A program made the position numbers and the translations under genes. Below, piece after piece: positions 2 through 36,165 of a stretch of DNA of 64,000 bases (positions are counted from its first letter, which is position 1; every line of letters begins with the position of its first letter). The DNA is taken from the NCBI RefSeq assembly GCF_055900595.2, contig NZ_CM148325.1. One strand, written 5' to 3'. Below the pieces are notes generated by a model that was not told where the DNA came from, did no database searches, and worked only from the letters and a program-made list of their open reading frames with translations.

Positions 2-1258
2 GAAAAAACTTCCGATCGTCTGCACTTTGACGAAGCCTGGTACGGTTATGCACGTTTCAACCCGATCTATGCCGATCACTATGCCATGCGCGGTGAACCT
101 GGCGATCACAACGGTCCTACCGTTTTCGCCACCCACTCAACCCACAAACTGCTGAATGCGCTGTCACAGGCCTCTTACATTCATGTGCGTGAAGGTCGTG
201 GGGCGATTAACTTCTCCCGCTTCAACCAGGCATACATGATGCATGCCACCACATCCCCGCTGTATGCCATCTGTGCATCTAACGACGTGGCGGTGTCGAT
301 GATGGACGGCAACAGCGGCCTGTCACTGACCCAGGAAGTGATCGACGAAGCGGTTGATTTCCGTCAAGCGATGGCACGGCTGTATAAAGAGTTCACCCAT
401 GACGGTAGCTGGTTCTTCAAACCGTGGAACAAAGAAGTGGTCACCGATCCACAAACCGGCAAAACCTACGACTTTGCTGACGCGCCAACCAAACTGCTGA
501 CCACCGTTCAGGACTGCTGGGTAATGCATCCGGGCGAAAGCTGGCACGGCTTCAAAGATATTCCGGATAACTGGAGTATGCTCGACCCAATTAAAGTCAG
601 CATTCTCGCACCGGGAATGGGTGAAGATGGTGAACTGGAAGAAACCGGTGTTCCGGCGGCGCTGGTCACTGCCTGGCTTGGTCGCCACGGCATTGTGCCT
701 ACCCGCACCACTGACTTCCAGATTATGTTCCTGTTCTCTATGGGCGTAACCCGTGGGAAATGGGGAACTCTGGTTAACACCCTTTGCTCCTTCAAACGCC
801 ACTACGACGCCAACACACCGCTGGCGCAGGTGATGCCGGAACTTGTTGAACAATATCCTGACACTTACGCGAATATGGGGATTCACGATCTGGGTGACAC
901 CATGTTTGTCTGGCTAAAAGAAAATAACCCTGGCGCACGGTTGAACGAAGCCTATTCCGGCCTGCCGGTGGCGGAAATCACCCCGCGTGAAGCGTACAAC
1001 GCAATTGTCGATAACAATGTCGAACTGGTATCCATTGAAAATCTGCCTGGACGCATCGCGGCAAACTCAGTTATCCCGTATCCGCCAGGAATCCCGATGC
1101 TACTGTCTGGTGAAAACTTCGGCGATAAAAACAGTCCACAGGTAAGTTATTTACGCTCCCTGCAATCCTGGGACCATCATTTCCCTGGATTTGAACACGA
1201 AACTGAAGGGACTGAAATTATTGACGGTATTTACCACGTCATGTGTGTGAAAGCGTAA
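2..1258 (+). CDS. adiA: Biodegradative arginine decarboxylase, C-terminal ~418 aa (5' end lies outside the window)
   Basis: Open frame runs from the window edge to the stop at 1258; translation resembles the C-terminal region of the large PLP-dependent Orn/Lys/Arg decarboxylases; followed by adiY and adiC as in the E. coli adi locus. Confidence 0.85.
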   Translation, partial: EKTSDRLHFDEAWYGYARFNPIYADHYAMRGEPGDHNGPTVFATHSTHKLLNALSQASYIHVREGRGAINFSRFNQAYMMHATTSPLYAICASNDVAVSMMDGNSGLSLTQEVIDEAVDFRQAMARLYKEFTHDGSWFFKPWNKEVVTDPQTGKTYDFADAPTKLLTTVQDCWVMHPGESWHGFKDIPDNWSMLDPIKVSILAPGMGEDGELEETGVPAALVTAWLGRHGIVPTRTTDFQIMFLFSMGVTRGKWGTLVNTLCSFKRHYDANTPLAQVMPELVEQYPDTYANMGIHDLGDTMFVWLKENNPGARLNEAYSGLPVAEITPREAYNAIVDNNVELVSIENLPGRIAANSVIPYPPGIPMLLSGENFGDKNSPQVSYLRSLQSWDHHFPGFEHETEGTEIIDGIYHVMCVKA

Positions 1259-6238: not shown

Positions 6239-7330
6239 ATGCGTTTTCTGCGCCGACCAATATCGCTGCGCCAACGGCTGATATTGACCATCGGGGCCAT
6301 TTTGTTGGTGTTTGAGCTGATCAGCGTCTTCTGGCTATGGCATGAAAGTACCGAGCAGATTCAGCTGTTTGAGCAGGCGCTACGCGACAATCGTAACAAC
6401 GATCGCCACATCATGCGTGAGATCCGCGAGGCGGTCGCCAGCCTGATTGTCCCTGGCGTCTTTATGGTCAGCCTGACGCTATTTATCTGCTATCAGGCGG
6501 TACGCCGCATCACCCGCCCGCTGGCGGAGCTGCAAAAAGAGCTGGAAGCGCGCACCGCCGACAACTTAACGCCCATTGCCATTCACAGCGCCACCCTCGA
6601 AATCGAAGCGGTGGTTTCAGCGTTAAACGATCTGGTCAGTCGCCTGACCAACACGCTGGATAACGAAAGGTTGTTTACCGCTGACGTCGCGCACGAACTG
6701 CGAACGCCACTGGCGGGGGTGCGTTTGCATCTGGAACTGCTGGCGAAAACGCATCACATTGATGTAGCACCGTTAGTGGCACGACTTGATCAGATGATGG
6801 AGAGTGTCTCCCAGCTACTGCAACTGGCGCGTGCCGGACAGTCATTTTCTTCCGGTAATTATCAACATGTAAAACTGCTGGAAGATGTCATTCTCCCCTC
6901 GTATGACGAACTCAGTACCATGCTCGACCAGCGCCAGCAAACCCTGCTATTGCCAGAGAGCGCCGCCGACATCATCGTTCAGGGTGATGCAACCCTGCTG
7001 CGGATGTTATTGCGAAACCTGGTAGAAAATGCCCATCGTTACAGCCCGCAAGGCAGCAACATTATGATTAAGCTGCAAGAAGATGGCGGAGCGGTCATGG
7101 CCGTTGAAGATGAAGGACCGGGTATTGATGAGAGTAAATGCGGGGAGTTGAGTAAAGCGTTTGTACGTATGGACAGCCGTTATGGCGGGATTGGTCTGGG
7201 GTTAAGTATTGTCAGCCGCATTACACAGTTGCATCACGGGCAGTTTTTCCTGCAAAACCGGCAAGAGACTTCTGGCACACGGGCCTGGATACGGCTGAAA
7301 AAAGATCAGTACGTGGCAAACCAGATATAA
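6239..7330 (+). CDS. basS: Sensor histidine kinase BasS/PmrB
   Basis: 363 aa from the ATG at 6239 (six-frame ORF begins at 6230); two TM segments, H-box AHELRTPLA, HATPase region with GIGLGLSIV. Confidence 0.85.
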   Translation: MRFLRRPISLRQRLILTIGAILLVFELISVFWLWHESTEQIQLFEQALRDNRNNDRHIMREIREAVASLIVPGVFMVSLTLFICYQAVRRITRPLAELQKELEARTADNLTPIAIHSATLEIEAVVSALNDLVSRLTNTLDNERLFTADVAHELRTPLAGVRLHLELLAKTHHIDVAPLVARLDQMMESVSQLLQLARAGQSFSSGNYQHVKLLEDVILPSYDELSTMLDQRQQTLLLPESAADIIVQGDATLLRMLLRNLVENAHRYSPQGSNIMIKLQEDGGAVMAVEDEGPGIDESKCGELSKAFVRMDSRYGGIGLGLSIVSRITQLHHGQFFLQNRQETSGTRAWIRLKKDQYVANQI

Positions 7331-7395
7331 AGAAAGCTGCTGACCACCAGCACGCTGAACACGGTAGTTAAACTTTCATAAACACGGTTTTTCAT
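7306..7395 (-). CDS. pmrR: Small membrane peptide PmrR (29 aa: MKNRVYESLTTVFSVLVVSSFLYIWFATY)
   Basis: Translated by hand from the minus strand (not in the six-frame track); GGAGG Shine-Dalgarno 8 nt upstream; single hydrophobic helix; preceded by a PmrA box; 3' end overlaps basS antisense by ~25 nt. Confidence 0.6.
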   Translation of the reverse strand: MKNRVYESLTTVFSVLVVSSFLYIWFATY

Positions 7396-7439
7396 TGCAC
7401 TCTCCTCCGTTAACCTGGAGGAGAGTATGCGCGTCAGAG

Positions 7440-7456
7440 ATTAAGTGAACCTTAAG
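7440..7456 (-). promoter_or_regulatory. PmrA (BasR) box CTTAAG-N5-CTTAAT upstream of pmrR
   Basis: Minus strand reads cttaaggttcacttaat, a match to the PmrA direct-repeat consensus, ~45 bp upstream of the pmrR ATG. Confidence 0.5.
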
Positions 7457-7465
7457 AGTTCAATT

Positions 7466-13144: not shown

Positions 13145-13290
13145 TCGGTAGGCCGGATAAGGCGCTCGCGCCGCATCCGGCTACGGTGCCGACTGCCTGA
13201 TGCGACGCTCGCGCGTCTTATCAGGCCTACAAATTCTCGCACCATCCGGCAACGGTGCCTAATGCGACGCTTACCGAGTCTTATCAGCCC
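13145..13290. repeat. Cluster of REP (repetitive extragenic palindromic / BIME) units
   Basis: Repeated ggccggataaggcg...cgccgcatccggc and gcctgatgcgacgc...gtcttatcaggcctac motifs in alternating orientation. Confidence 0.8.
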
Positions 13291-13851: not shown

Positions 13852-13884
13852 CTGTTAGTCACTTTTAGTTAACAAAATCGTCAC
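13852..13884 (+). promoter_or_regulatory. Pho box (PhoB binding site) of the phnC promoter
   Basis: ctgttagtcacttttagttaacaaaatcgtcac resembles tandem PhoB half-sites (CTGTCAT-like) placed ~45-75 bp upstream of the phnC ATG. Confidence 0.55.
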
Positions 13885-13928
13885 GATAATCCGCCACGAT
13901 GGAGCCACTTTTTTAGGGAGGCTGCATC

Positions 13929-14717
13929 ATGCAAACGATTATCCGTGTCGAGAAGCTCGCCAAAACCTTCAATCAGCATCAGGCGCTGCATGCGGTTGAT
14001 CTGAACATTCATCACGGTGAAATGGTGGCTCTGCTTGGGCCGTCCGGTTCCGGCAAATCCACCCTTTTACGTCATTTAAGCGGTTTGATTACCGGCGATA
14101 AATCTGCCGGTAGCCATATCGAGCTGCTGGGCCGCACAGTCCAGCGCGAAGGCCGCCTGGCCCGCGATATCCGCAAAAGCCGCGCCAACACCGGCTACAT
14201 CTTCCAACAATTCAACCTGGTGAATCGCCTGAGCGTACTGGAGAACGTGCTGATTGGCGCGCTCGGCAGCACGCCATTCTGGCGCACCTGTTTTAGCTAC
14301 TTCACCCGCGAGCAGAAACAGCGCGCGTTACAGGCGCTGACCCGCGTTGGCATGGTGCACTTTGCCCATCAGCGCGTTTCCACCCTCTCCGGCGGACAGC
14401 AGCAGCGTGTGGCGATTGCCCGTGCGCTGATGCAGCAGGCGAAGGTGATTCTGGCCGATGAACCGATCGCCTCGCTGGACCCGGAATCGGCCCGCATCGT
14501 GATGGATACCCTGCGCGACATCAACCAGAACGACGGCATCACCGTGGTGGTGACGCTGCATCAGGTGGATTACGCCCTGCGCTACTGCGAACGCATCGTC
14601 GCCCTGCGCCAGGGGCACGTCTTCTACGACGGCAGCAGCCAACAGTTTGATAACGAACGTTTTGACCATCTCTACCGCAGCATTAACCGCGTCGAAGAGA
14701 ACGCGAAAGCTGCCTGA
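13929..14717 (+). CDS. phnC: Phosphonate ABC transporter ATP-binding protein
   Basis: 262 aa; Walker [15 protein letters not shown] signature LSGGQQQRV, Walker B ILADEP. Confidence 0.9.
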
Positions 14718-14741: not shown

Positions 14742-15758
14742 ATGAACGCTAAGATAATTGCCTCGCTGGCCTTCACCAGCATGTTCAGCCTCAGCACCCT
14801 GTTAAGCCCGGCGCACGCCGAAGAGCAGGAAAAGGCGCTGAATTTCGGCATTATTTCAACGGAATCACAGCAAAACCTGAAACCGCAATGGACGCCGTTC
14901 TTACAGGATATGGAGAAGAAGCTGGGCGTAAAGGTCAACGCCTTCTTTGCCCCGGACTACGCGGGCATTATCCAGGGGATGCGCTTCAACAAAGTGGACA
15001 TCGCCTGGTACGGCAATCTGTCGGCGATGGAAGCGGTGGATCGCGCCAACGGTCAGGTCTTCGCCCAGACGGTCGCGGCGGATGGATCGCCGGGTTACTG
15101 GAGCGTGTTGATCGTCAACAAAGACAGTCCGATCAACAACCTGAACGATCTGCTGGCAAAGCGTAAAGATCTCACCTTCGGCAATGGCGATCCTAACTCC
15201 ACCTCTGGCTTCCTCGTCCCCGGCTACTACGTCTTCGCCAAAAACAATATCTCCGCCAGCGACTTCAAGCGCACCGTCAACGCCGGGCATGAAACCAACG
15301 CGCTGGCCGTCGCCAACAAGCAGGTGGATGTGGCGACCAACAACACCGAGAACCTCGACAAGCTGAAAACCTCCGCACCGGAGAAGCTCAAAGAACTGAA
15401 GGTGATCTGGAAATCGCCGCTGATCCCAGGCGATCCGATCGTCTGGCGCAAAAATCTTTCCGAAACCACCAAAGACAAGATCTACGACTTCTTTATGAAC
15501 TACGGCAAAACGCCGGAAGAGAAAGCGGTGCTGGAGCGCCTGGGCTGGGCCCCGTTCCGCGCCTCCAGCGACCTGCAACTGGTGCCGATTCGCCAGCTCG
15601 CGCTGTTTAAAGAGATGCAGGGCGTGAAAGGCAATAAAGGGCTGAATGAGCAGGACAAGCTGGCAAAAACCAGCGCCATTCAGGCGCAACTGGATGACCT
15701 GGACCGCCTGAACAACGCGTTAAGCGCGATGAGTTCGGTGAGTAAAGCGGTGCAGTAA
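14742..15758 (+). CDS. phnD: Phosphonate ABC transporter periplasmic binding protein
   Basis: 338 aa with an N-terminal signal peptide; follows phnC. Confidence 0.9.
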   Translation: MNAKIIASLAFTSMFSLSTLLSPAHAEEQEKALNFGIISTESQQNLKPQWTPFLQDMEKKLGVKVNAFFAPDYAGIIQGMRFNKVDIAWYGNLSAMEAVDRANGQVFAQTVAADGSPGYWSVLIVNKDSPINNLNDLLAKRKDLTFGNGDPNSTSGFLVPGYYVFAKNNISASDFKRTVNAGHETNALAVANKQVDVATNNTENLDKLKTSAPEKLKELKVIWKSPLIPGDPIVWRKNLSETTKDKIYDFFMNYGKTPEEKAVLERLGWAPFRASSDLQLVPIRQLALFKEMQGVKGNKGLNEQDKLAKTSAIQAQLDDLDRLNNALSAMSSVSKAVQ

Positions 15759-15768
15759 TGTGCTCGAT

Positions 15769-15861
15769 CGGTCCCCTCTCCCTTGAGGGAGAGGGTTAGG
15801 GTGAGGAAGAAATGCGCACGCTGGTGCCCTCACCCCGGCCCTCTCCCACAGGGAGAGGGAG
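15769..15861. repeat. Pair of GC-rich palindromic units (ccctctccc-loop-gggagaggg plus ttagggtgagg / cctcaccccgg) in inverted orientation
   Basis: Perfect 9-bp stem-loops seen directly; the same unit recurs at 21122-21231. Confidence 0.6.
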
Positions 15862-15883
15862 AAAACATTAAACGGAGCCAAAC

Positions 15884-16663
15884 ATGCAAACCATCACCAT
15901 TGCCCCACCCAAGCGCAGCTGGTTCTCGATCTTCAGCTGGGCCATTGTTCTCGCCGTACTGGTCGTCTCGTGGCAGGGCGCGGAAATGGCCCCGCTCACG
16001 CTGATTAAAGACGGCGGCAACATGGCGACGTTCGCCGCCGACTTCTTCCCGCCCGATTTCAGCCAGTGGCAGGATTACCTCACCGAAATGGCCGTCACGC
16101 TGCAAATCGCCGTCTGGGGCACCGCGCTGGCAGTCGTTCTCTCCATCCCCTTCGGCCTGATGAGCGCCGAAAACCTGGTGCCGTGGTGGGTTTACCAGCC
16201 CGTTCGCCGCCTGATGGACGCCTGCCGCGCCATTAACGAGATGGTCTTCGCCATGCTGTTCGTGGTCGCCGTCGGTCTCGGTCCGTTCGCTGGCGTACTG
16301 GCGCTGTTTATCCACACCACCGGCGTGCTCTCCAAACTGCTTTCCGAAGCGGTAGAAGCAATTGAACCCGGCCCGGTGGAAGGCATTCGCGCCACCGGTG
16401 CCAACAAGCTCGAAGAGATCCTCTATGGCGTGCTGCCGCAGGTGATGCCGCTGCTAATCTCCTACTCCCTCTATCGCTTCGAATCCAACGTCCGCTCGGC
16501 CACCGTTGTTGGCATGGTCGGCGCTGGCGGGATCGGCGTCACGCTGTGGGAAGCGATTCGCGGTTTCCAGTTCCAGCAAACCTGTGCCCTGATGGTGCTG
16601 ATTATCGTCACGGTCAGCCTGCTGGATTTCCTCTCTCAACGGTTGCGTAAGCACTTTATCTGA
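15884..16663 (+). CDS. phnE: Phosphonate ABC transporter permease, apparently intact
   Basis: 259 aa uninterrupted ORF with multiple TM segments. Confidence 0.85.
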
Positions 16664-16683: not shown

Positions 16684-17409
16684 ATGCACTTGTCTACACA
16701 TCCGACCAGCTACCCAACACGCTATCAGGAGATAGCCGCAAAACTTGAGCAGGAGCTTCGTCAACACTACCGCTGCGGCGACTATCTTCCCGCCGAGCAG
16801 CAACTGGCAGCGCGCTTTGAGGTGAATCGCCACACCCTGCGCCGTGCCATCGACCAACTGGTGGAAAAAGGCTGGGTACAGCGCCGTCAGGGCGTCGGCG
16901 TGCTGGTGCTGATGCGCCCGTTCGATTACCCGCTCAACGCCCAGGCGCGTTTTAGCCAGAACCTGCTGGATCAGGGTAGCCATCCCACCAGCGAAAAACT
17001 GCTGTCCGTGCTGCGCCCGGCCTCCGGTCACGTCGCTGACGCGCTGGGGATAACCGAGGGCGAGAACGTTATCCACCTGCGCACCCTGCGCCGGGTCAAC
17101 GGCGTCGCACTCTGTTTAATCGACCACTACTTTGCGGACCTCACTCTCTGGCCGACGCTGCAACGCTTCGACAGCGGCTCGCTGCACGATTTTTTGCACG
17201 AGCAAACGGGGATTGCGCTGCGCCGCAGCCAGACGCGGATCAGCGCCCGCCGCGCCCAGGCCAAAGAGTGCCAGCGTCTTGAAATCCCGAATATGTCGCC
17301 GCTGCTGTGCGTGCGCACCCTTAACCACCGTGACGGTGAAAGCAGCCCGGCGGAGTACTCCGTCAGCCTGACGCGCGCCGACATGATTGAATTCACTATG
17401 GAGCACTGA
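16684..17409 (+). CDS. phnF: GntR-family transcriptional regulator of the phn operon
   Basis: 241 aa; N-terminal GntR HTH followed by a UTRA-like domain. Confidence 0.85.
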   Translation: MHLSTHPTSYPTRYQEIAAKLEQELRQHYRCGDYLPAEQQLAARFEVNRHTLRRAIDQLVEKGWVQRRQGVGVLVLMRPFDYPLNAQARFSQNLLDQGSHPTSEKLLSVLRPASGHVADALGITEGENVIHLRTLRRVNGVALCLIDHYFADLTLWPTLQRFDSGSLHDFLHEQTGIALRRSQTRISARRAQAKECQRLEIPNMSPLLCVRTLNHRDGESSPAEYSVSLTRADMIEFTMEH

Positions 17410-17862
17410 ATGCACGCAGATACCGCGACCCGCCAGCACTGGATGTCCGTGCTGGCGCACAGCCAACCGGCTGAACTGGCTAACCGCCTTAAAGCGCTAA
17501 ACATCACCGCCGACTATGACATTATCCGCGCCGCCGAAACCGGCCTGGTACAGATTCAGGCGCGGATGGGTGGCACCGGCGAACGCTTTTTTGCCGGCGA
17601 CGCCACGCTCACCCGCGCCGCCATACGCCTGACTGACGGCACGCTCGGCTACAGCTGGGTGCTGGGGCGCGACAAACAGCACGCCGAACGCTGCGCGCTG
17701 ATTGACGCGCTGATGCAGCAATCTCGCCACTTTCAAAACTTATCAGAAACCCTTATTGCCCCGCTGGACGCTGACCGTATGGCACGCATTGCCGCACGCC
17801 AGGCCGAAGTGAACGCCAGTCGGGTCGACTTCTTTACGATGGTTCGCGGAGACAACGCATGA
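17410..17862 (+). CDS. phnG: C-P lyase core complex subunit PhnG
   Basis: 150 aa; start abuts the phnF stop; operon position. Confidence 0.85.
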
Positions 17863-18443
17863 CCCTGGAAACCGCTTTTATGCTTCCCGTGCAGGATGCC
17901 CAGCACAGTTTTCGTCGCCTGTTAAAGGCCATGAGCGAGCCGGGCGTGATTGTCGCCCTACATCAACTCAAACGCGGCTGGCAGCCGCTGAATATTGCCT
18001 CTACCAGCGTATTGCTGACGCTGGCTGATAACGACACGCCGGTGTGGCTTTCCGCGCCATTAAGTAACGATATCGTCAGCCAGAGCCTGCGTTTTCATAC
18101 CAACGCCCCGCTGGTCAATCAGCCGGAACAGGCGACCTTCGCAGTGACGGATGAGGCGATTGCCAGCGAGCAGCTCAACGCCCTTTCCACCGGCACCGCC
18201 GTTGCGCCGGAAGCCGGTGCGACGTTGATTTTACAGGTCACCAGCCTGAGCGGCGGACGCATGCTGCGCCTCACCGGCGCGGGTATTGCCGAAGAACGGA
18301 TGATCGCCCCGCAACTGCCGGAGTGCATTCTGCACGAACTCACCGAGCGCCCGCACCCGTTCCCGCTCGGCATCGACCTGATCCTGACCTGCGGCGAGCG
18401 CCTGCTGGCTATTCCGCGAACCACTCATGTGGAGGTGTGCTGA
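17859..18443 (+). CDS. phnH: C-P lyase core complex subunit PhnH
   Basis: 194 aa; 4-nt overlap with phnG. Confidence 0.85.
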
Positions 18444-19507
18444 TGTACGTTGCCGTGAAAGGGGGCGAGAAGGCGATCGACGCCGCCCACGCCCTGCAAG
18501 AGAGCCGACGCCGGGGCGATACCGATTTGCCTGAACTGAGCGTCGCCCAGATTGAACAGCAGCTTAATCTCGCGGTGGATCGCGTGATGACCGAAGGCGG
18601 CATTGCCGACCGCGAACTGGCCGCACTGGCGCTGAAACAGGCCAGTGGCGATAACGTTGAAGCAATTTTCCTGCTGCGCGCCTACCGCACGACGCTGGCA
18701 AAACTGGCGGTGAGCGAACCGCTCGACACCACCGAGATGCGTCTCGAACGCCGTATCTCCGCCGTTTATAAAGACATTCCTGGCGGCCAGTTGCTTGGCC
18801 CGACCTACGACTACACCCATCGCCTGCTCGATTTCACCCTGCTGGCGAATGGCGAAGCGCCGACGCTGACCACCGCCGACAGCGAGCAAGCCCCATCACC
18901 GCACGTTTTCAGCCTGCTGGCGCGTCAGGGGCTGGCGAAGTTTGAAGAGGATAGCGGCACACAGCCGGATGACATCACCCGCACGCCGCCGGTTTACCCC
19001 TGCTCACGCTCCTCCCGCCTGCAGCAGCTCATGCGCGGAGACGAAGGCTATTTGCTGGCGCTGGCCTACTCCACCCAGCGTGGTTACGGACGCAATCACC
19101 CGTTCGCAGGCGAAATCCGCAGTGGCTATATCGACGTGTCTATTGTGCCGGAAGAGCTGGGATTTGCGGTGAACATCGGCGAACTGCTGATGACCGAGTG
19201 TGAAATGGTCAACGGTTTTATCGACCCGCCGGATGAGCCGCCGCACTTCACGCGCGGCTACGGGCTGGTGTTCGGCATGAGCGAGCGCAAAGCGATGGCA
19301 ATGGCGCTGGTTGACCGTGCGTTGCAGGCTCCGGAGTACGGCGAGCACGCGACAGGCCCGGCGCAGGATGAAGAGTTCGTGCTGGCGCATGCCGACAACG
19401 TCGAAGCCGCAGGCTTTGTCTCGCACCTCAAACTCCCGCACTACGTCGATTTCCAGGCCGAGCTGGAGCTACTCAAACGTCTGCAACAGGAGCAGAACCA
19501 TGGCTAA
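18443..19507 (+). CDS. phnI: C-P lyase core complex subunit PhnI
   Basis: 354 aa from [17 protein letters not shown]; ATG overlaps the phnH stop (the six-frame ORF start at 18323 is an upstream extension). Confidence 0.85.
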   Translation: MYVAVKGGEKAIDAAHALQESRRRGDTDLPELSVAQIEQQLNLAVDRVMTEGGIADRELAALALKQASGDNVEAIFLLRAYRTTLAKLAVSEPLDTTEMRLERRISAVYKDIPGGQLLGPTYDYTHRLLDFTLLANGEAPTLTTADSEQAPSPHVFSLLARQGLAKFEEDSGTQPDDITRTPPVYPCSRSSRLQQLMRGDEGYLLALAYSTQRGYGRNHPFAGEIRSGYIDVSIVPEELGFAVNIGELLMTECEMVNGFIDPPDEPPHFTRGYGLVFGMSERKAMAMALVDRALQAPEYGEHATGPAQDEEFVLAHADNVEAAGFVSHLKLPHYVDFQAELELLKRLQQEQNHG

Positions 19508-20345
19508 TCTGAGCGGCTACAACTTTGCCTACCTCGACGAGCAGACCAAACGCATGATCCGCCGCGCCATCTTAAAAGCGGTGGCGATCCCCGGCTATCA
19601 GGTGCCGTTTGGCGGGCGCGAGATGCCGATGCCATACGGCTGGGGAACCGGCGGCATACAGCTTACCGCCAGCGTGATTGGCGAAAGCGACGTGTTGAAG
19701 GTGATTGACCAGGGCGCGGATGACACCACCAACGCCGTATCAATTCGCAACTTTTTCAAGCGCGTGACCGGGGTAAACACCACTGAACGTACGGACGATG
19801 CGACGCTTATCCAGACGCGCCACCGCATCCCCGAAACGCCGCTGACCGAAGATCAGATCATTATCTTCCAGGTGCCGATCCCGGAACCGCTGCGCTTTAT
19901 CGAGCCGCGCGAAACGGAGACCCGCACCATGCACGCGCTGGAGGAGTACGGCGTGATGCAGGTGAAACTATATGAAGATATCGCCCGCTTCGGTCATATC
20001 GCCACCACTTATGCCTATCCGGTGAAGGTGAACGGGCGCTACGTCATGGACCCATCGCCGATCCCGAAATTCGATAACCCGAAAATGGACATGATGCCCG
20101 CCCTGCAACTGTTTGGCGCGGGGCGCGAGAAGCGTATTTATGCGGTGCCGCCGTTTACCCGCGTGGAAAGCCTCGATTTTGACGATCACCCGTTCACCGT
20201 TCAGCAGTGGGATGAACCCTGCGCGATTTGCGGATCAACCCACAGCTATCTCGATGAAGTGGTGCTGGATGACGCCGGAAACCGCATGTTTGTCTGCTCC
20301 GATACCGATTATTGCCGCCAACAGAGCGAGGCGAAAAGCCAATGA
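19500..20345 (+). CDS. phnJ: C-P lyase catalytic subunit PhnJ
   Basis: 281 aa from MANLSGYNFAYLDEQTKRMIRR; C-terminal Cys cluster (CAICGSTHSYLDE...CSDTDYC); overlaps phnI. Confidence 0.85.
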   Translation: MANLSGYNFAYLDEQTKRMIRRAILKAVAIPGYQVPFGGREMPMPYGWGTGGIQLTASVIGESDVLKVIDQGADDTTNAVSIRNFFKRVTGVNTTERTDDATLIQTRHRIPETPLTEDQIIIFQVPIPEPLRFIEPRETETRTMHALEEYGVMQVKLYEDIARFGHIATTYAYPVKVNGRYVMDPSPIPKFDNPKMDMMPALQLFGAGREKRIYAVPPFTRVESLDFDDHPFTVQQWDEPCAICGSTHSYLDEVVLDDAGNRMFVCSDTDYCRQQSEAKSQ

Positions 20346-21100
20346 ATCAACCGTTACTTTCGGTCAATAACCTGACCCACCTTTACGCGCCGGGCAAAGG
20401 CTTCAGCGATGTCTCTTTTGATTTATGGCCGGGGGAAGTGCTGGGCATTGTCGGGGAATCCGGTTCCGGGAAGACCACGCTGCTGAAATCAATCTCCGCC
20501 CGTCTGACGCCGCAACAGGGGGAGATTCACTATGAAAACCGTTCCCTCTATGGCATGAGCGAGGCCGACCGCCGTCGCCTGCTGCGCACCGAATGGGGCG
20601 TGGTGCATCAGCATCCGCTCGACGGCCTGCGCCGCCAGGTCTCGGCAGGCGGCAATATCGGCGAACGGCTGATGGCGACCGGGGCGCGTCATTACGGCGA
20701 CATTCGCGCCACCGCGCAGAAGTGGCTGGAAGAGGTGGAGATTCCCGCCAACCGTATCGACGACCTGCCGACCACTTTTTCCGGCGGTATGCAGCAGCGT
20801 TTGCAGATTGCCCGCAACCTGGTGACGCATCCGAAGCTGGTGTTTATGGATGAACCGACCGGCGGGCTGGATGTATCGGTACAGGCGCGCCTGCTCGACC
20901 TGCTGCGCGGCCTGGTGGTGGAACTGAACCTGGCGGTGGTGATTGTCACCCATGATTTAGGCGTCGCCCGCCTGCTGGCGGACCGTTTGCTGGTGATGAA
21001 GCAGGGGCAGGTGGTGGAGAGTGGGTTAACCGACCGCGTGCTCGACGACCCGCATCACCCGTATACCCAGTTGCTGGTGTCATCGGTTTTGCAGAATTGA
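20342..21100 (+). CDS. phnK: C-P lyase accessory ATPase PhnK (ABC-type NBD)
   Basis: 252 aa from MNQPLLSVNNLTHLY; Walker A GESGSGKTTLL. Confidence 0.85.
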   Translation: MNQPLLSVNNLTHLYAPGKGFSDVSFDLWPGEVLGIVGESGSGKTTLLKSISARLTPQQGEIHYENRSLYGMSEADRRRLLRTEWGVVHQHPLDGLRRQVSAGGNIGERLMATGARHYGDIRATAQKWLEEVEIPANRIDDLPTTFSGGMQQRLQIARNLVTHPKLVFMDEPTGGLDVSVQARLLDLLRGLVVELNLAVVIVTHDLGVARLLADRLLVMKQGQVVESGLTDRVLDDPHHPYTQLLVSSVLQN

Positions 21101-21121
21101 ATGCAACACCGTGCGCGCTGA

Positions 21122-21231
21122 TCCCCTCACCCCGGCCCTCTCCCGGAGGGAGAGGGAGAAAACCGGCGCAATATTCAACACCGCGCACAATCGGTCCCCT
21201 CGCCCCTTCGGGGAGAGGGTTAGGGTGAGGG
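21122..21231. repeat. Two GC-rich palindromic units of the same family as 15769-15861, flanked by caacaccg(t)gcgc motifs
   Basis: cccctcaccccggccctctcccggagggagaggg and cggtcccctcgccccttcggggagagggttagggtgagggg seen directly. Confidence 0.6.
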
Positions 21232-21276
21232 GCAATGCGCGCACCGCTCCCCAATATGCGAACCACGAGGCGAAAA

Positions 21277-21957
21277 ATGATTAACGTACAAAACGTCAGT
21301 AAAACCTTCATCCTGCACCAGCAAAACGGCGTGCGCCTGCCCGTCTTACAACGCGCCTCGCTCACCGTCAACGCGGGCGAATGCGTGGTGCTCCACGGTC
21401 ACTCCGGCAGCGGCAAATCGACCCTGCTACGTTCGCTGTACGCCAACTATCTGCCCGACGAAGGGCAAATCCAGATTAAACACGGTGACGAATGGATAGA
21501 CCTGGTCACCGCCCCAGCGCGCAAAGTGGTGGAAATCCGCAAAACCACTGTCGGCTGGGTAAGTCAGTTTCTGCGCGTCATCCCGCGTATTTCGGCACTG
21601 GAAGTGGTGATGCAGCCGCTGCTCGATACCGGCGTTCCGCGTGAAGCCTGCGCCGCTAAAGCCGCCCGATTACTGACGCGCCTGAACGTGCCTGAACGCC
21701 TGTGGCACCTGGCACCATCGACCTTCTCCGGCGGCGAACAGCAGCGCGTCAACATCGCCCGTGGCTTTATCGTCGACTATCCGATTCTGCTGCTGGATGA
21801 ACCCACCGCCTCGCTGGACGCCAAAAACAGCGCCGCCGTAGTGGAACTGATCTGCGAAGCCAAAGCCCGCGGCGCGGCCATCGTCGGTATCTTCCATGAC
21901 GAAGCCGTACGCAATGACGTCGCCGACCGCCTGCACCCAATGGGAGTCTCTTCATGA
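21277..21957 (+). CDS. phnL: C-P lyase accessory ATPase PhnL (ABC-type NBD)
   Basis: 226 aa from [11 protein letters not shown]; Walker [12 protein letters not shown]. Confidence 0.85.
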
Positions 21958-23090
21958 TTATCAATAACGTCAAACTGGTGCTGGAAAATGAAGTGGTGCA
22001 CGGTTCACTGGAAGTACAGGATGGCGAAATTCGCGCCTTTGCCGAAAGCCAGAGCCGCCTGCCAGAGGCGATGGACGGCGAAGGCGGCTGGCTGCTGCCG
22101 GGGCTGATTGAGCTGCATACCGACAACCTCGATAAATTCTTCACTCCGCGCCCAAAAGTGGACTGGCCTGCCCACTCGGCGATGAGCAGCCACGACGCGC
22201 TGATGGTGGCGAGCGGCATCACCACCGTACTGGATGCCGTGGCGATTGGCGACGTGCGCGACGGCGGCGATCGGCTGGAGAATCTGGAGAAGATGATCAA
22301 CGCCATCGAAGAGACGCAGAAACGCGGCGTCAACCGCGCCGAGCACCGTCTGCACCTGCGCTGTGAACTGCCACATCACACCACGCTGCCGCTGTTTGAA
22401 AAACTGGTGCAGCGCGAGCCGGTAACGCTGGTGTCGCTAATGGACCACTCGCCGGGCCAGCGCCAGTTCGCCAATCGCGAGAAGTATCGCGAATATTATC
22501 AGGGCAAATACTCGCTCACCGATGCGCAGATGCAGCTGTACGAAGAGGAACAGCTGGCGCTTGCCGCACGCTGGTCGCAGCCGAATCGCGAAACCATCGC
22601 CGCAATGTGCCGCGCGCGACAAATTGCCCTCGCCAGCCACGATGACGCCACGCACGCGCACGTTGCCGAATCCCACCAGCTTGGCAGCGTAATCGCCGAA
22701 TTTCCCACCACGTTCGAAGCGGCGGAAGCTTCGCGCAAGCATGGCATGAATGTATTGATGGGCGCGCCGAATATTGTGCGCGGCGGTTCGCACTCCGGCA
22801 ACGTGGCGGCCAGTGAACTGGCACAGCTTGGTCTGCTGGATATCCTCTCTTCCGACTACTACCCCGCCAGCCTGCTCGATGCGGCATTTCGCGTCGCCGA
22901 TGACGAGAGCAACCGCTTTACGCTGCCGCAGGCGGTGAAGCTGGTGACTAAAAATCCGGCGCAGGCGCTGAATCTTCAGGATCGCGGGGTGATTGGCGAG
23001 GGCAAACGCGCCGACCTGGTGCTGGCGCATCGCAAGGGTAATCACATTCATATCGACCACGTCTGGCGTCAGGGGAAAAGGGTGTTTTGA
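21954..23090 (+). CDS. phnM: RPnTP diphosphohydrolase PhnM (amidohydrolase superfamily)
   Basis: 378 aa; 4-nt overlap with phnL and phnN; operon position. Confidence 0.85.
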
Positions 23091-23647
23091 TGATGGGAAA
23101 ACTGGTTTGGTTGATGGGGCCGTCCGGCTCCGGGAAAGATAGCCTGCTGGCGGAGCTCCGCCTGCGGGAACAAGCTCAGTTACTGGTGGCGCATCGCTAC
23201 ATCACGCGCGATGCCAGCGCCGGAAGCGAAAATCATATCGCCCTGAGTGAGCAGGAGTTTTTTGCCCGCGCGGGGCAGCAACTCTTCGCATTAAGCTGGC
23301 ATGCTAATAGCTACTATTACGGTGCCGGGCTGGAAATTGACCTCTGGCTGCACGCCGGATTCGACGTGGTGGTCAACGGTTCACGCGCCCATCTGCCGCA
23401 GGCGCGGGCGCGCTATCAATCGGCGCTGCTGCCCATCTGTTTACAGGTTTCGCCAGAGATCCTGCGCCAGCGCCTGGAAAACCGTGGACGGGAAAACGCG
23501 ACAGAAATTAACGCCCGACTCGCACGCGCCGCCCGCTATACTCCTCAGGATTGCCATACGCTCAACAATGACGGCAGCCTGCGCCAGTCGGTCGACACGC
23601 TGCTGACGCTGATCCATCAGAAGGAGAAACACCATGCCTGCTTGTGA
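23090..23647 (+). CDS. phnN: Ribose 1,5-bisphosphate phosphokinase PhnN
   Basis: 185 aa; P-loop [11 protein letters not shown]. Confidence 0.85.
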
Positions 23648-24068
23648 GCTTCGCCCGGCCACGCAGTACGATACCGACGCGGTTTACGCGCTGATTTGCG
23701 AGCTAAAACAGGCGGAGTTTGACCACCACGCGTTTCGCGTGGGGTTTAACGCCAATCTGCGCGACCCGAACATGCGCTACCATCTGGCGCTGCTGGATGG
23801 CGAAGTTGTCGGCATGATCGGCCTGCATTTGCAGTTTCATCTGCATCATGTCAACTGGATCGGCGAAATTCAGGAACTGGTGGTGATGCCGCAGGCACGT
23901 GGTTTGAACGTGGGTAGCAAATTGCTGGCATGGGCGGAAAAAGAAGCTCGCCAGGCCGGGGCCGAAATGACCGAGCTTTCCACCAACGTCAAGCGCCACG
24001 ACGCGCACCGTTTCTATCTGCGCGAAGGCTACGAGCAGAGCCACTTCCGCTTCACCAAGGCGCTGTAA
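23634..24068 (+). CDS. phnO: Aminoalkylphosphonate N-acetyltransferase PhnO (GNAT)
   Basis: 144 aa GNAT-like protein overlapping the phnN 3' end. Confidence 0.85.
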
Positions 24069-24069
24069 C

Positions 24070-24828
24070 ATGAGCCTGACCCTCACACTTACTGGCACTG
24101 GCGGCGCACAGGGTGTTCCCGCATGGGGCTGTGAGTGCGCGGCCTGCGCCAGAGCGCGGCGCTCACCGCAGTATCGCCGCCAGCCATGCAGCGGCGTCGT
24201 GAAGTTTAACGACGCGATCACCCTGATCGACGCCGGGCTGCACGGTCTCGCCGATCGCTGGTCGCCCGGATCGTTCCAGCAGTTTTTGCTGACACACTAC
24301 CATATGGATCACGTGCAGGGGCTGTTTCCGCTGCGCTGGGGCGTGGGCGATTCGATCCCGGTCTACGGCCCGCCGGATGAACAGGGCTGCGACGATCTGT
24401 TTAAACATCCGGGCCTGCTTGATTTCAGCCACACGGTGGAGCCATTTGTGATGTTTGATTTGCAGGGATTACAGGTCACGCCGCTGCCGCTCAACCATTC
24501 GAAACTCACTTTCGGCTATCTACTGGAAACGGCACATAGCCGGGTGGCGTGGCTGTCTGACACCGCAGGCCTGCCGGAAAAAACGGTGAAATTTTTACGC
24601 AATAATCAGCCGCAGGTGATGGTGATTGATTGCAGTCACCCACCGCGCGCGAATTCGCCACGCAATCACTGTGATTTAAACACCGTGCTGGCGCTGAATG
24701 AAGTTATCCGCTCGCCGCGCGTGGTTCTGACACATATCAGCCATCAGCTTGATGTGTGGCTGATGGAGAACGTACTGCCGTCAGGGTTTGAGGCGGGGTT
24801 TGATGGGATGGAGATTGGGGTGGAGTGA
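24070..24828 (+). CDS. phnP: Phosphoribosyl 1,2-cyclic phosphate phosphodiesterase PhnP (metallo-beta-lactamase fold)
   Basis: 252 aa; HxHxDH motif (THYHMDH). Confidence 0.85.
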
Positions 24829-24862: not shown

Positions 24863-25192
24863 TCACCGCCCATACTCATCTTCCATTCTCCGCTCTTCAT
24901 CTTCTAGCTGCCGACGCTCCTGATCCAGCTGGCGCTGGCGATCGTCCAGCTGCCTGCGGCGATCTTCAAACTGGCGGCGGCGATCGTCATATTGTCTGCG
25001 CCGATCGTCGTTCACTTCACGCTGCCAGCCGTCGTCGCGCGAATCTTCATAGTCTCGCCCACGGTCAGGGTTATAAGCATCGTTAATCGCCTGCTGAATA
25101 TTACCAATGGTGTCGTCGATAATATCGGCCTGGGCCGGAACGGTGGACAGCGTGAGCAGGGTGAATAAAAGAAATAGCGGAAAACGTTTCAT
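24863..25192 (-). CDS. yjdP: Small secreted protein YjdP (signal peptide, charged Arg/Asp/Glu/Gln-rich repeats)
   Basis: 109 aa; N-terminal MKRFPLFLLFTLLTLSTVPAQA signal peptide, then low-complexity RRRQ/DDR repeats. Confidence 0.75.
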   Translation of the reverse strand: MKRFPLFLLFTLLTLSTVPAQADIIDDTIGNIQQAINDAYNPDRGRDYEDSRDDGWQREVNDDRRRQYDDRRRQFEDRRRQLDDRQRQLDQERRQLEDEERRMEDEYGR

Positions 25193-25260
25193 TAGCCAAC
25201 CTCAAAAAGAAACTCTATCCACATTAGTCATTACTCATCCATGCAAGTAGTGGATGAATC

Positions 25261-25578
25261 TCAATTTTTCCGCTGCTCTATTGCCGTAATCGCCTCCACA
25301 CGTTGTTGATGACGACCGCCTTCGTACTGCGCGCCCAGCCACGCATCCACAATCATTTTTGCCAGTTCGAGGCCAACCACTCGTGAACCAAAAGCCAGTG
25401 CAACTTCACTGGCGTAATGCGGATAATCAGTGCGCTCTGACGACCTGGTTTCTTTATCAATCCCCTCACTCATTGACCATGAATAAAAGGCTGGCACAGC
25501 AACGCAGAATCCTGCGGTGCCAGCGACATGACCGCCCATTGCTCCGGTACGTTTTTTAATAAGAAACACCGGTTGCAT
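25261..25578 (-). pseudogene. rpiB: Remnant of ribose-5-phosphate isomerase B gene (internally deleted, 5' part scrambled)
   Basis: C-terminal ~60 aa of the ORF (SSERTDYPHYASEVALAFGSRVVGLELAKMIVDAWLGAQYEGGRHQQRVEAITAIEQRKN) matches RpiB as I recall it, but the central ~50 residues, including the GTGVG...AANK active-site region, are missing and the N-terminus does not match. Confidence 0.55.
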
Positions 25579-25830
25579 TGATTAATTGTGCTCAGTATTT
25601 GCCGAAGTACAATATATATAATAAATATATAAAACACCTCATATTATTTACAGAGATAATAAATTCGCATACTTTTCCCTCTTCAGCACAAATGCCTAAT
25701 AAAATGGCTCGTTCCGCTCACACTTCCACTTATTAAAATCGCAATTTCCCAATTATGATAACGCCAGCTTTAAATGACGTATTTTGCATGGATTACATAT
25801 TTACGACACAAATGATAAATGGAGATTTAT

Positions 25831-27816
25831 ATGAATAACTCTCGGTTATTCCGTTTGAGCAGGATTGTTATTGCGTTAACTGCCGCCAGCGGCATGATGG
25901 TAAATACCGCTCACGCAACAGATGAAGCGAAAGCCGCCACTCAATATACCCAACAGGTTAATCAGAATTACGCCAAATCATTACCGTTTAGCGATCGTCA
26001 GGATTTTGACGATGCCCAGCGCGGATTTATCGCCCCGCTGCTGGATGAAGGTATTCTGCGCGATGCGAATGGCAAAGTTTACTACCGCGCGGATGATTAC
26101 AAATTTGATATTAATGCCGCTGCGCCGGAAACCGTAAACCCCAGCCTGTGGCGTCAGTCGCAGATCAACGGCATTTCTGGCCTGTTCAAAGTCACCGATA
26201 AAATGTATCAGGTGCGCGGCCAGGATATCTCTAACATTACATTCGTTGAGGGCGAGAAAGGCATTATTGTTATCGACCCACTGGTGACACCGCCTGCCGC
26301 AAAAGCCGCACTTGACCTTTACTTCCAGCATCGTCCGCAAAAACCGATTGTTGCTGTTATTTACACCCACAGCCACGCCGACCATTATGGCGGTGTGAAA
26401 GGCATTATCTCTGAAGCGGATGTTAAATCTGGCAAAGTGCAGGTGATCGCTCCGGCAGGCTTTATGGACGAAGCCATCAGCGAAAACGTGCTGGCGGGTA
26501 ACATCATGAGCCGCCGTGCGCTCTACTCTTACGGTCTGTTACTGCCGCACAACGCGCAAGGCAACGTGGGCAACGGCCTGGGCGTGACGCTGGCAACGGG
26601 CGATCCGAGCATTATTGCGCCAACCAAAACGATTGTCAGAACTGGCGAGAAGATGGTTATCGACGGTCTGGAGTTTGACTTTCTGATGACTCCGGGTAGC
26701 GAAGCGCCAGCCGAAATGCACTTCTATATTCCGGCCCTGAAAGCCCTGTGTACCGCCGAAAACGCCACGCATACCCTGCACAACTTCTACACCCTGCGCG
26801 GCGCGAAAACCCGCGATACCAGCAAGTGGACAGCGTATCTGAACGAAACGCTGGATATGTGGGGTAACGACGCGGAAGTACTGTTTATGCCGCACACCTG
26901 GCCGGTCTGGGGCAATAAGCATATCAATGATTATATTGGTAAATATCGCGATACTATCAAATACATTCACGACCAGCCCCTGCACCTGGCGAACCAGGGT
27001 TACACCATGAATGAAATCGGCGACATGATTAAGCTGCCACCTGCGCTTGCCAATAACTGGGCCAGCCGCGGCTATTACGGTTCTGTTAGCCACAACGCCC
27101 GTGCAGTGTATAACTTCTATCTCGGCTATTATGACGGCAATCCAGCTAACCTACATCCGTACGGTCAGGTGGAGATGGGCAAACGTTACGTGAAAGCGCT
27201 GGGCGGTTCCGCCCGTGTCATCAACCTGGCGCAAGAAGCGAACAAGCAAGGGGATTACCGCTGGTCAGCAGAGTTGCTGAAACAATTGATTGCCGCCAAT
27301 CCGGGTGACCAGGTGGCGAAGAATCTGCAAGCAAATAACTTTGAACAGTTGGGTTATCAGGCCGAGTCCGCCACCTGGCGCGGTTTCTACCTGACCGGCG
27401 CAAAAGAGCTGCGCGAAGGGGTGCATAAGTTCAGCCACGGCACCACCGGTTCTCCGGACACCCTTCGCGGGATGTCGGTCGAAATGCTGTTCGACTTTAT
27501 GGCCGTTCGCCTCGATAGCGCGAAAGCCGCAGGTAAGAATATCAGCCTGAACTTCAATATGAGCAACGGCGATAACCTCAACCTGACGCTGAACGATAGC
27601 GTGCTTAACTACCGTAAAACGCTGCAACCTGAAGCCAACGCCTCTTTCTACATCAGCCGTGAAGATCTTCACGCCGTGCTGACCGGACAAGCCAAAATAG
27701 CGGATCTGGTAAAAGTGAAGAAAGCCAAAATTATTGGCAATGGCGCGAAACTGGAAGAAATTATTGCCTGTCTGGATAATTTCGATTTGTGGGTGAATAT
27801 CGTAACCCCAAATTAA
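25831..27816 (+). CDS. yjcS: Putative alkyl/aryl sulfatase YjcS (metallo-beta-lactamase fold, secreted)
   Basis: 661 aa from MNNSRLFRL; signal peptide; HSHADH motif. Confidence 0.8.
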
Positions 27817-33061: not shown

Positions 33062-35209
33062 ATGAAAAAAGTCGTCACGGTTTGCCCCTATTGCGCATCA
33101 GGTTGCAAAATCAACCTGGTCGTCGATAACGGCAAAATCGTCCGGGCGGAGGCAGCGCAGGGGAAAACCAACCAGGGTACCCTGTGTCTGAAGGGTTATT
33201 ATGGCTGGGACTTCATTAACGATACCCAGATCCTGACCCCGCGCCTGAAAACCCCCATGATTCGTCGCCAGCGTGGCGGCAAACTCGAACCTGTTTCCTG
33301 GGATGAGGCACTGAATTACGTTGCCGAGCGCCTGAGCGCCATCAAAGAGAAGTACGGTCCGGATGCCATCCAGACGACCGGCTCCTCGCGTGGTACGGGT
33401 AACGAAACCAACTATGTAATGCAAAAATTTGCGCGCGCCGTTATTGGTACCAATAACGTTGACTGCTGCGCTCGTGTCTGACACGGCCCATCGGTTGCAG
33501 GTCTGCACCAATCGGTCGGTAATGGCGCAATGAGCAATGCTATTAACGAAATTGATAATACCGATTTAGTGTTCGTTTTCGGGTACAACCCGGCGGATTC
33601 CCACCCTATCGTGGCGAATCACGTAATTAACGCTAAACGTAACGGGGCGAAAATTATCGTCTGCGATCCGCGCAAAATTGAAACTGCGCGCATTGCTGAC
33701 ATGCACATTGCACTGAAAAACGGCTCGAATATCGCGCTGTTGAATGCGATGGGCCATGTCATTATTGAAGAAAATCTGTACGACAAAGCGTTCGTCGCTT
33801 CCCGTACAGAAGGCTTTGAAGAGTATCGTAAAATCGTTGAAGGCTACACGCCGGAGTCGGTTGAAGATATCACCGGCGTCAGCGCCAGTGAGATTCGTCA
33901 GGCGGCTCGGATGTATGCCCAGGCGAAAAGCGCCGCCATCCTGTGGGGCATGGGTGTAACCCAGTTCTACCAGGGCGTGGAAACCGTGCGTTCTCTGACC
34001 AGCCTCGCGATGCTGACTGGTAACCTCGGTAAGCCGCATGCGGGTGTAAACCCGGTTCGTGGGCAAAACAACGTGCAGGGTGCCTGCGATATGGGCGCGC
34101 TGCCAGATACTTACCCTGGCTACCAGTACGTGAAAGATCCGGCTAACCGCGAGAAATTCGCCAAAGCCTGGGGTGTAGAGAGTTTGCCAGCACATACCGG
34201 TTATCGCATCAGCGAGCTGCCGCATCGCGCAGCGCATGGTGAAGTGCGTGCCGCGTACATTATGGGCGAAGATCCGCTACAAACTGACGCGGAGCTGTCG
34301 GCAGTACGTAAAGCCTTTGAAGATCTGGAACTGGTCATCGTTCAGGACATCTTTATGACCAAAACCGCGTCGGCGGCGGATGTCATTTTACCGTCAACGT
34401 CGTGGGGCGAGCATGAAGGCGTGTTTACTGCGGCTGACCGTGGCTTCCAGCGTTTCTTCAAGGCGGTTGAACCGAAGTGGGATCTGAAAACGGACTGGCA
34501 GATTATCAGTGAAATCGCCACCCGTATGGGTTATCCGATGCACTACAACAACACCCAGGAGATCTGGGACGAGTTGCGTCACCTGTGCCCGGATTTCTAC
34601 GGTGCGACTTACGAGAAAATGGGCGAACTGGGCTTCATTCAGTGGCCTTGCCGCGATACTTCAGATGCCGATCAGGGGACTTCTTATTTGTTTAAAGAGA
34701 AGTTTGATACCCCGAACGGTCTGGCGCAGTTCTTCACCTGCGACTGGGTAGCGCCAATCGACAAACTCACCGACGAGTATCCGATGGTACTGTCAACGGT
34801 GCGTGAAGTCGGTCACTACTCTTGCCGTTCGATGACCGGTAACTGTGCGGCACTGGCGGCGCTGGCTGATGAACCTGGCTACGCACAAATCAATACCGAA
34901 GACGCCAAACGTCTGGGTATTGAAGATGAGGCATTGGTTTGGGTGCACTCGCGTAAAGGCAAAATTATCACCCGTGCGCAGGTCAGCGATCGTCCGAACA
35001 AAGGGGCGATTTACATGACCTACCAGTGGTGGATTGGTGCCTGTAACGAGCTGGTTACCGAAAACTTAAGCCCGATTACGAAAACGCCGGAATACAAATA
35101 CTGCGCCGTGCGCGTCGAGCCGATCGCCGATCAGCGCGCCGCCGAGCAGTACGTGATTGACGAGTACAACAAGTTGAAAACTCGCCTGCGCGAAGCGGCA
35201 TTGGCGTAA
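33062..35209 (+). CDS. fdhF: Formate dehydrogenase H (selenocysteine-containing; UGA at 33479-33481 decoded as Sec)
   Basis: Two same-frame ORFs (33062-33481 and 33530-35209) separated only by a TGA; joined product 715 aa; N-terminal Cys cluster CPYCASGC; SECIS hairpin immediately 3' of the UGA. Confidence 0.9.
33482..33525 (+). other. SECIS element (SelB-binding mRNA hairpin) directing Sec insertion at the fdhF UGA
   Basis: cacggcccatcggttgcaggtctgcaccaatcggtcggtaatggc immediately follows the in-frame TGA and matches the fdhF SECIS as I recall it. Confidence 0.7.
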
Positions 35210-35994: not shown

Positions 35995-36165
35995 TAGGCC
36001 TGATAAGACGCGGCAAGCGTCGCATCAGGCATTGATGTCGGATGCGGCGTAAACGCCTTATCCGACCTACAAAATCACGCTAAATCAGGCTATTGCGCAG
36101 TCTGGCGTAGGCCTGATAAGACGCGGTAAGCGTCGCATCAGGCATCCACACATTGCCGGGTGTAT
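35995..36165. repeat. Cluster of REP/BIME units
   Basis: Three copies of gtaggcctgataagacgcg...cgtcgcatcaggc / ggatgcggcgtaaacgccttatccgacctac in alternating orientation. Confidence 0.85.

Follow-up and report, generated by a model that had tools for sequence, protein, structure and literature searches.

A predicted functional-type phnE allele with two octamer copies in a complete phn operon of Escherichia coli

The phn operon of Escherichia coli includes phnE, whose product we take to be the permease (membrane) subunit of PhnCDE, an ABC importer of phosphonates. The phosphonate defect of strain K-12 is due to an 8-bp duplication in phnE, which Phn+ derivatives shed by slippage between direct repeats (PMC3463581, PMC4759930); loss of the duplication restores growth on phosphonate (PMC3463581), and slippage at the phnE tract is reported to be frequent in K-12 (PMC4759930). 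The closest described relatives of the gene studied here are phn(EcoB) of E. coli B, taken from the literature rather than from sequence, and phn(EcoK+) of the K-12 Phn+ revertants, and the biology of intact phnE as opposed to the cryptic K-12 allele is already known. In this work, we analyzed the phnE gene carried by a 64-kb stretch of E. coli DNA (the window, meaning the whole stretch at its full length). Like phn(EcoB) and phn(EcoK+), the window gene has 2 octamers, 780 bp and 259 aa, within the same operon order and with the same neighbours; it differs from both in having Val138 encoded by GTA instead of GTG, its two octamers being less alike. The cryptic K-12 phnE corresponds to the window gene in identity, position, operon and the codon at which the tract lies, and is unlike it in its extra GCTGGCGT, its length of 788 bp, and the loss of its frame and of its EAA loop. 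The window gene very probably represents a standard functional-type phnE allele, carried by an E. coli strain whose phnCDEFGHIJKLMNOP operon is complete. Its features, in window coordinates, are as follows:

15884..16663, plus strand: phnE coding sequence, a single ATG-start open reading frame of 259 aa with 0 internal stops
16289..16304, plus strand: octamer tract GCTGGCGT ACTGGCGC, 2 copies, encoding Ala136-Ala140, placed by alignment and cross-strain comparison of the tract
16297, plus strand: synonymous G>A (Val138, GTG>GTA), which breaks the repeat and leaves an exact 6-bp repeat (CTGGCG) at 8-bp spacing
16379..16438, plus strand: EAA-type loop, codons 166-185, EGIRATG...LP, read off the translation

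The reading frame is preceded by GGAG 8 nt 5' of the ATG, and its product matched the NCBIfam equivalog TIGR01097 with 311.3 bits (cut-off 216.7, E = 4.8e-93, model positions 7-251 of 252), a score far beyond chance. Further, a Pfam BPD_transp_1 domain (PF00528) was found at aa 88-258 with 91.8 bits, and phnC and phnD adjoin the gene; these features, together with the near-full-length match above the curated cut-off, assign the product to the PhnE family of binding-protein-dependent ABC importer permeases, from which it shows no notable difference. Residues 166-185 presumably form the cytoplasmic EAA-type loop by which the permease of an ABC importer touches its ATPase. The original prediction of an intact permease gene, uninterrupted over 259 aa, was correct in coordinates, length and identity, as shown by the open reading frame and the TIGR01097 score. 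Open reading frames on the opposite strand or out of frame over phnE, such as a minus-strand one of 161 aa at 15830..16315, have nothing to support them and were dismissed as by-products of a G+C-rich gene. Tandem Repeats Finder reported no array in the window phnE, the two imperfect 8-bp copies falling below its threshold, and the tract was therefore read from alignments.

For the comparison with the cryptic allele, the 788-bp phnE of NEB 5-alpha, annotated in RefSeq as a "frameshifted" pseudogene, was used as the K-12 reference in a three-way alignment with the window gene and that of strain EC42405. As had been anticipated, the 8-bp repeat is absent from the window phnE, and the sole indel is an extra 8-bp GCTGGCGT in K-12 at ORF position 406; the tract reads GCTGGCGT GCTGGCGT GCTGGCGC in K-12, and GCTGGCGT ACTGGCGC in both the window and EC42405. 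Translated unedited, the K-12 gene leaves the frame after residue 140 and reaches a stop after 189 aa, and its predicted product therefore lacks the EAA loop as well as the latter half of the membrane domain, both of which are encoded 3' of the frameshift point. The duplication and frameshift that characterize the cryptic allele were not found in the window gene, which has 2 octamer copies against 3 in K-12 and an open frame, so that the full protein is expected to be made. Once the K-12 octamer is repaired, the two genes differ at 35 of 780 nt (95.5% DNA identity), 32 of these differences being synonymous, and the proteins differ at 3 residues (L16I, L17F and V21I), all of them conservative and within the first helix; the ratio of 35 nucleotide to 3 amino acid differences indicates, at the sequence level, purifying selection on phnE.

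With regard to the distribution of these alleles, a megablast search with the window ORF found phnE in 5394 of 5426 complete E. coli genomes, most of them giving a match of 780 bp, and K-12 derivatives along with some other genomes one of 788 bp. Octamer copies were counted in these genomes with short probes that yield a 28-nt seed on an exact tract only, the A-type probe being a 36-mer. The resulting census is a lower bound, with 3756 of the approximately 5394 phnE-bearing genomes assigned and the rest carrying nearby seed-breaking SNPs, as in O157:H7 GCTGGTGT:

3 copies, GTG type (the cryptic K-12 form): 1010 of 5426 genomes
2 copies, GTG type: 2338 of 5426 genomes
2 copies, GTA type (the window form): 408 of 5426 genomes
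3 copies, GTA type: 0 of 5426 genomes by exact probe
1 copy, contraction of the GTG type: 0 of 5426 genomes, with a probe blind to the A-type allele of the window

An intact phnE is the majority state in E. coli, and the window allele is unremarkable. The duplication was originally described as a trait of K-12 laboratory strains; its presence there was borne out, and its restriction to them was not, since the 1010 genomes with 3 copies include many wild isolates; among their sources are humans, pigs, chickens, wastewater and a kangaroo. For those who use K-12 as a reference, this means that about 19% of the complete E. coli genomes carry the cryptic allele, and that the tract exists in perfect and interrupted forms. 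In the three wild 3-copy isolates examined, the phnE haplotype lies 1-3 nt from that of K-12, so that descent within a single haplotype, more than recurrent origin, seems largely to account for the 3-copy allele. Conversely, the bovine isolate E. coli OkiPb01713 (NZ_AP042682.1) carries 7 octamers in a phnE of 820 bp (202..1021 of the compared segment), annotated as frameshifted and with a haplotype 24 nt from K-12; by its haplotype, this tract is an independent and larger expansion, which argues that the perfect-repeat tract does expand independently.

The window tract differs from the perfect one by the G>A substitution at 16297, and it is plausible that the allele with A at this position slips less than the K-12-type tract. 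We tentatively propose, as a possible rather than a probable reading, that this substitution acts as a repeat-breaking 'lock' that would lower slipped-strand expansion, and that its lineages would no longer switch phosphonate uptake ON and OFF, as perfect-repeat lineages such as K-12 still do. Copy numbers of 2, 3 or 7 were found in the perfect-GTG lineages, and no variant copy number of the GTA allele was recovered by the expansion probe in the 5426 genomes. The census is compatible with a lock (408 two-copy and 0 expanded forms of the A type, against 2338 two-copy, 1010 three-copy and one 7-copy form of the G type), with the qualification that its counts are of phylogenetically clustered genomes and not of independent events, the sampled wild 3-copy alleles sharing the K-12 haplotype; the proposal is kept tentative because of this relatedness.

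The same observations bear on a different reading, in which the tract is a working phase-variation switch that, like the one in K-12, changes appreciably often between OFF and ON and was caught by the window in its ON state. Two octamers with an exact 6-bp repeat do remain in the window gene, perfect-repeat lineages are unstable (3 copies in 1010 genomes and 7 in OkiPb01713, on a different haplotype), and slippage in K-12 is reported to be frequent (PMC4759930). However, the substitution at 16297 disrupts the repeat, no expanded A-type form accompanies the 408 two-copy ones among the 5426 related genomes, no one-copy contraction of the G type was recovered (the A-type allele being outside that probe), and no array was reported by Tandem Repeats Finder; a switch of this kind in the window strain is accordingly considered unlikely.

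Function can be predicted from an intact phnE only where the other parts of the pathway are intact as well. Gene names and positions were taken from the collinear RefSeq annotation of E. coli Z0117EC0005 and from that of K-12:

13929..14717, plus strand: phnC, transporter ATPase subunit, 262 aa, intact (NF007438, 606 bits; 4 aa differ from K-12)
14742..15758, plus strand: phnD, periplasmic phosphonate-binding protein, 338 aa, intact (TIGR03431, 376 bits; 3 aa differ from K-12)
16684..17409, plus strand: phnF, GntR-family operon regulator, 241 aa, intact (NF007486, 518 bits; 1 aa differs from K-12)
17410..24828, plus strand: phnG-phnP block, C-P lyase core and accessory enzymes, ten intact genes, namely
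17410-17862, plus strand: phnG
17859-18443, plus strand: phnH
18443-19507, plus strand: phnI
19500-20345, plus strand: phnJ
20342-21100, plus strand: phnK
21277-21957, plus strand: phnL
21954-23090, plus strand: phnM
23090-23647, plus strand: phnN
23634-24068, plus strand: phnO
24070-24828, plus strand: phnP

All 14 genes from phnC to phnP have an ATG start, no internal stops and exactly the K-12 length, and are found in order; none of the 14 bears a pseudogene flag in the RefSeq annotation of Z0117EC0005. Each protein differs from its K-12 counterpart at 0-14 residues, with nucleotide identities of 92% to 97%; PhnN differs at 12 residues and PhnP at 14.

Upstream of phnC, 135 nt align to K-12 without gaps, including the PhoB-site region:

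13852..13885, plus strand: phnC promoter PhoB-site region CTGTTAGTCACTTTTAGTTAACAAAATCGTCACG, which departs from the K-12 sequence at 3 positions (substitutions at 13868, 13874 and 13885)

In K-12, the PhoB motif of phnC determined by ChIP-seq is the 18-bp ATTAACCAAATCGTCACA, and phnC RNA amounts to 32,470 in the wild type versus 13 in a phoB deletion (PMC10294691). The three substitutions all fall inside this 18-bp motif and leave the GTCAC cores unchanged. According to PMC4447250, the phnC site has low affinity and is induced late, so a quantitative effect of the substitutions is conceivable, and they could alter the strength of phnC induction. The identical 92-nt promoter was found in 18 of the 5426 complete genomes, nearly all others being 95-99% identical to it. 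The regulatory genes phoB, phoR and pst lie outside the 64 kb of the window.

From this arrangement, the following course may be predicted. Under phosphate starvation, PhoB would activate the phnC promoter; full-length PhnE would be made, with its EAA loop coupling to the PhnC ATPase; PhnCDE would then import phosphonates, and PhnG-P would cleave the C-P bond. Expression, transport and growth on phosphonate in the source strain are what we infer from its sequence. The original prediction had spoken of a constitutively functional, Pho-regulated pathway. Its non-cryptic part is supported, within the reach of sequence, by the open phnE, by 14 intact genes out of 14 and by a PhoB-site region that is in place, and the word "constitutively" has to be given up in its usual sense: it can mean merely that the gene is not phase-OFF, and should be read as "not cryptic", because transcription of the operon remains PhoB-dependent and phnC expression is expected to require phosphate starvation and PhoB.

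Alternatively, an intact phnE could go with a pathway that other causes keep silent or weak. Such causes might include the substitutions in the promoter, a missense change that is deleterious, or a defective Pho regulator encoded outside the window, and the Phn+ phenotype would then fail. The 3 substitutions relative to K-12 in the PhoB-site region, the rarity of the exact 92-nt promoter (just 18 genomes), and the case of O157:H7 FRIK804, which has an intact phnE yet a frameshifted phnD, give this explanation some footing. Against it, the GTCAC cores are spared, 14 of 14 genes are intact, synonymous changes prevail (32 of 35 in phnE), and the same protein alleles are widespread; we consider it decidedly improbable. 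With the functional-type reading retained, the source strain is to be annotated as phnE+, and it is predicted to use phosphonate as a phosphorus source under phosphate limitation, as most E. coli and unlike K-12.

As a separate observation, E. coli O157:H7 FRIK804 (NZ_CP034384.1) carries an intact phnE with the interrupted tract GCTGGTGT GCTGGCGC and a phnD annotated as frameshifted, which suggests that the transporter can be lost by routes besides the phnE octamer.

The reliability of the window sequence was assessed against public records. The exact 259-aa protein is already present in NCBI as E. coli PhnE, on 215 contigs, and public E. coli assemblies contain the exact PhnE, PhnC, PhnD, PhnG, PhnN and PhnP proteins, with contig counts from 215 to more than 1000. 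A 6.8-kb phn segment that includes phnE shows 99.97% identity to the independent GenBank chromosome of E. coli AP025754.1, and the phnE DNA of the two is identical, so an assembly artefact in the window phnE is very unlikely. A sequencing or assembly error could in principle have miscounted the short tandem repeat and collapsed a third octamer, the true window gene being frameshifted, but this is barely conceivable: any platform easily resolves an 8-bp unit, and both the identical DNA in AP025754.1 and the protein on 215 contigs stand against it.

Concerning the origin of the operon, the best 18-kb match to the window among complete RefSeq genomes reached only 98.1%, which raised the possibility of a source other than E. 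coli. This was rejected, since the stretch from 28 to 64 kb nearly matches E. coli Z0117EC0005 and the phn segment is 99.97% identical to E. coli AP025754.1. Compared kilobase by kilobase with E. coli Z0117EC0005, the window shows 5 differences in the 36 kb between 28 and 64 kb, and up to 80 differences per kb between 3 and 28 kb, with a peak in phnN. This divergence beside near-identity therefore places the whole phn operon, by sequence comparison, within a recombination block that extends roughly from eptA to yjcS, on an otherwise ordinary E. coli backbone. The 3' side of the operon contains:

24863..25192, minus strand: yjdP, 3' of phnP
25261..25578, minus strand: rpiB-like gene remnant, 105 aa
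25819..27816, plus strand: yjcS

In K-12, this position holds a full-length rpiB and then alsR and alsB, which belong to the allose (als) genes; in the window strain, the allose genes appear to be absent from this position (24863..27816).

The spacers of the operon differ from those of K-12 in their repeat elements, that between phnD and phnE bearing a different one:

15759..15883, plus strand: phnD-phnE spacer, with two G+C-rich palindromic units in inverted arrangement and, after them, the ribosome-binding site of phnE

This spacer and the one between phnK and phnL (21101..21276) each hold an inverted pair of palindromic units of about 35 nt, G+C-rich and with the core GGGAGAGGGTTAGGGTGAGG, which appear to resemble 'box C' repeats. 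The core has 4 matches in the window against 0.01 expected, and the RNA fold has -70.8 kcal/mol (z = -6.3). REP-type elements occupy both the phnD-phnE and the phnK-phnL sites in K-12, and the phnD-phnE site in O157, Nissle and O111, this being the only site compared in the latter three. After phnP, K-12 has a GGGAGAGGG-type pair, of which the window has a remnant only. The genome NZ_CM135829.1, labelled 'DH5alpha' (4.83 Mb), has an intact phnE whose haplotype is not that of K-12, and its phnD-phnE spacer contains one GGGAGAGGG-type unit; it seems not to derive from K-12 and is probably mislabelled.

Finally, Rfam matches reaching the gathering score were found in the window at 7299..7464 (minus strand), 13151..13227 (plus), 33474..33528 (plus), 35997..36067 (minus), 46615..46686 (minus) and 53941..54080 (plus), and comprise STnc630, three naRNA4, the fdhF selenocysteine insertion element and sraL. 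The STnc630 match overlaps the pmrR region, the naRNA4 elements are REP-derived, and the naRNA4 match at about 36 kb coincides with a length difference of about 113 bp from Z0117EC0005.
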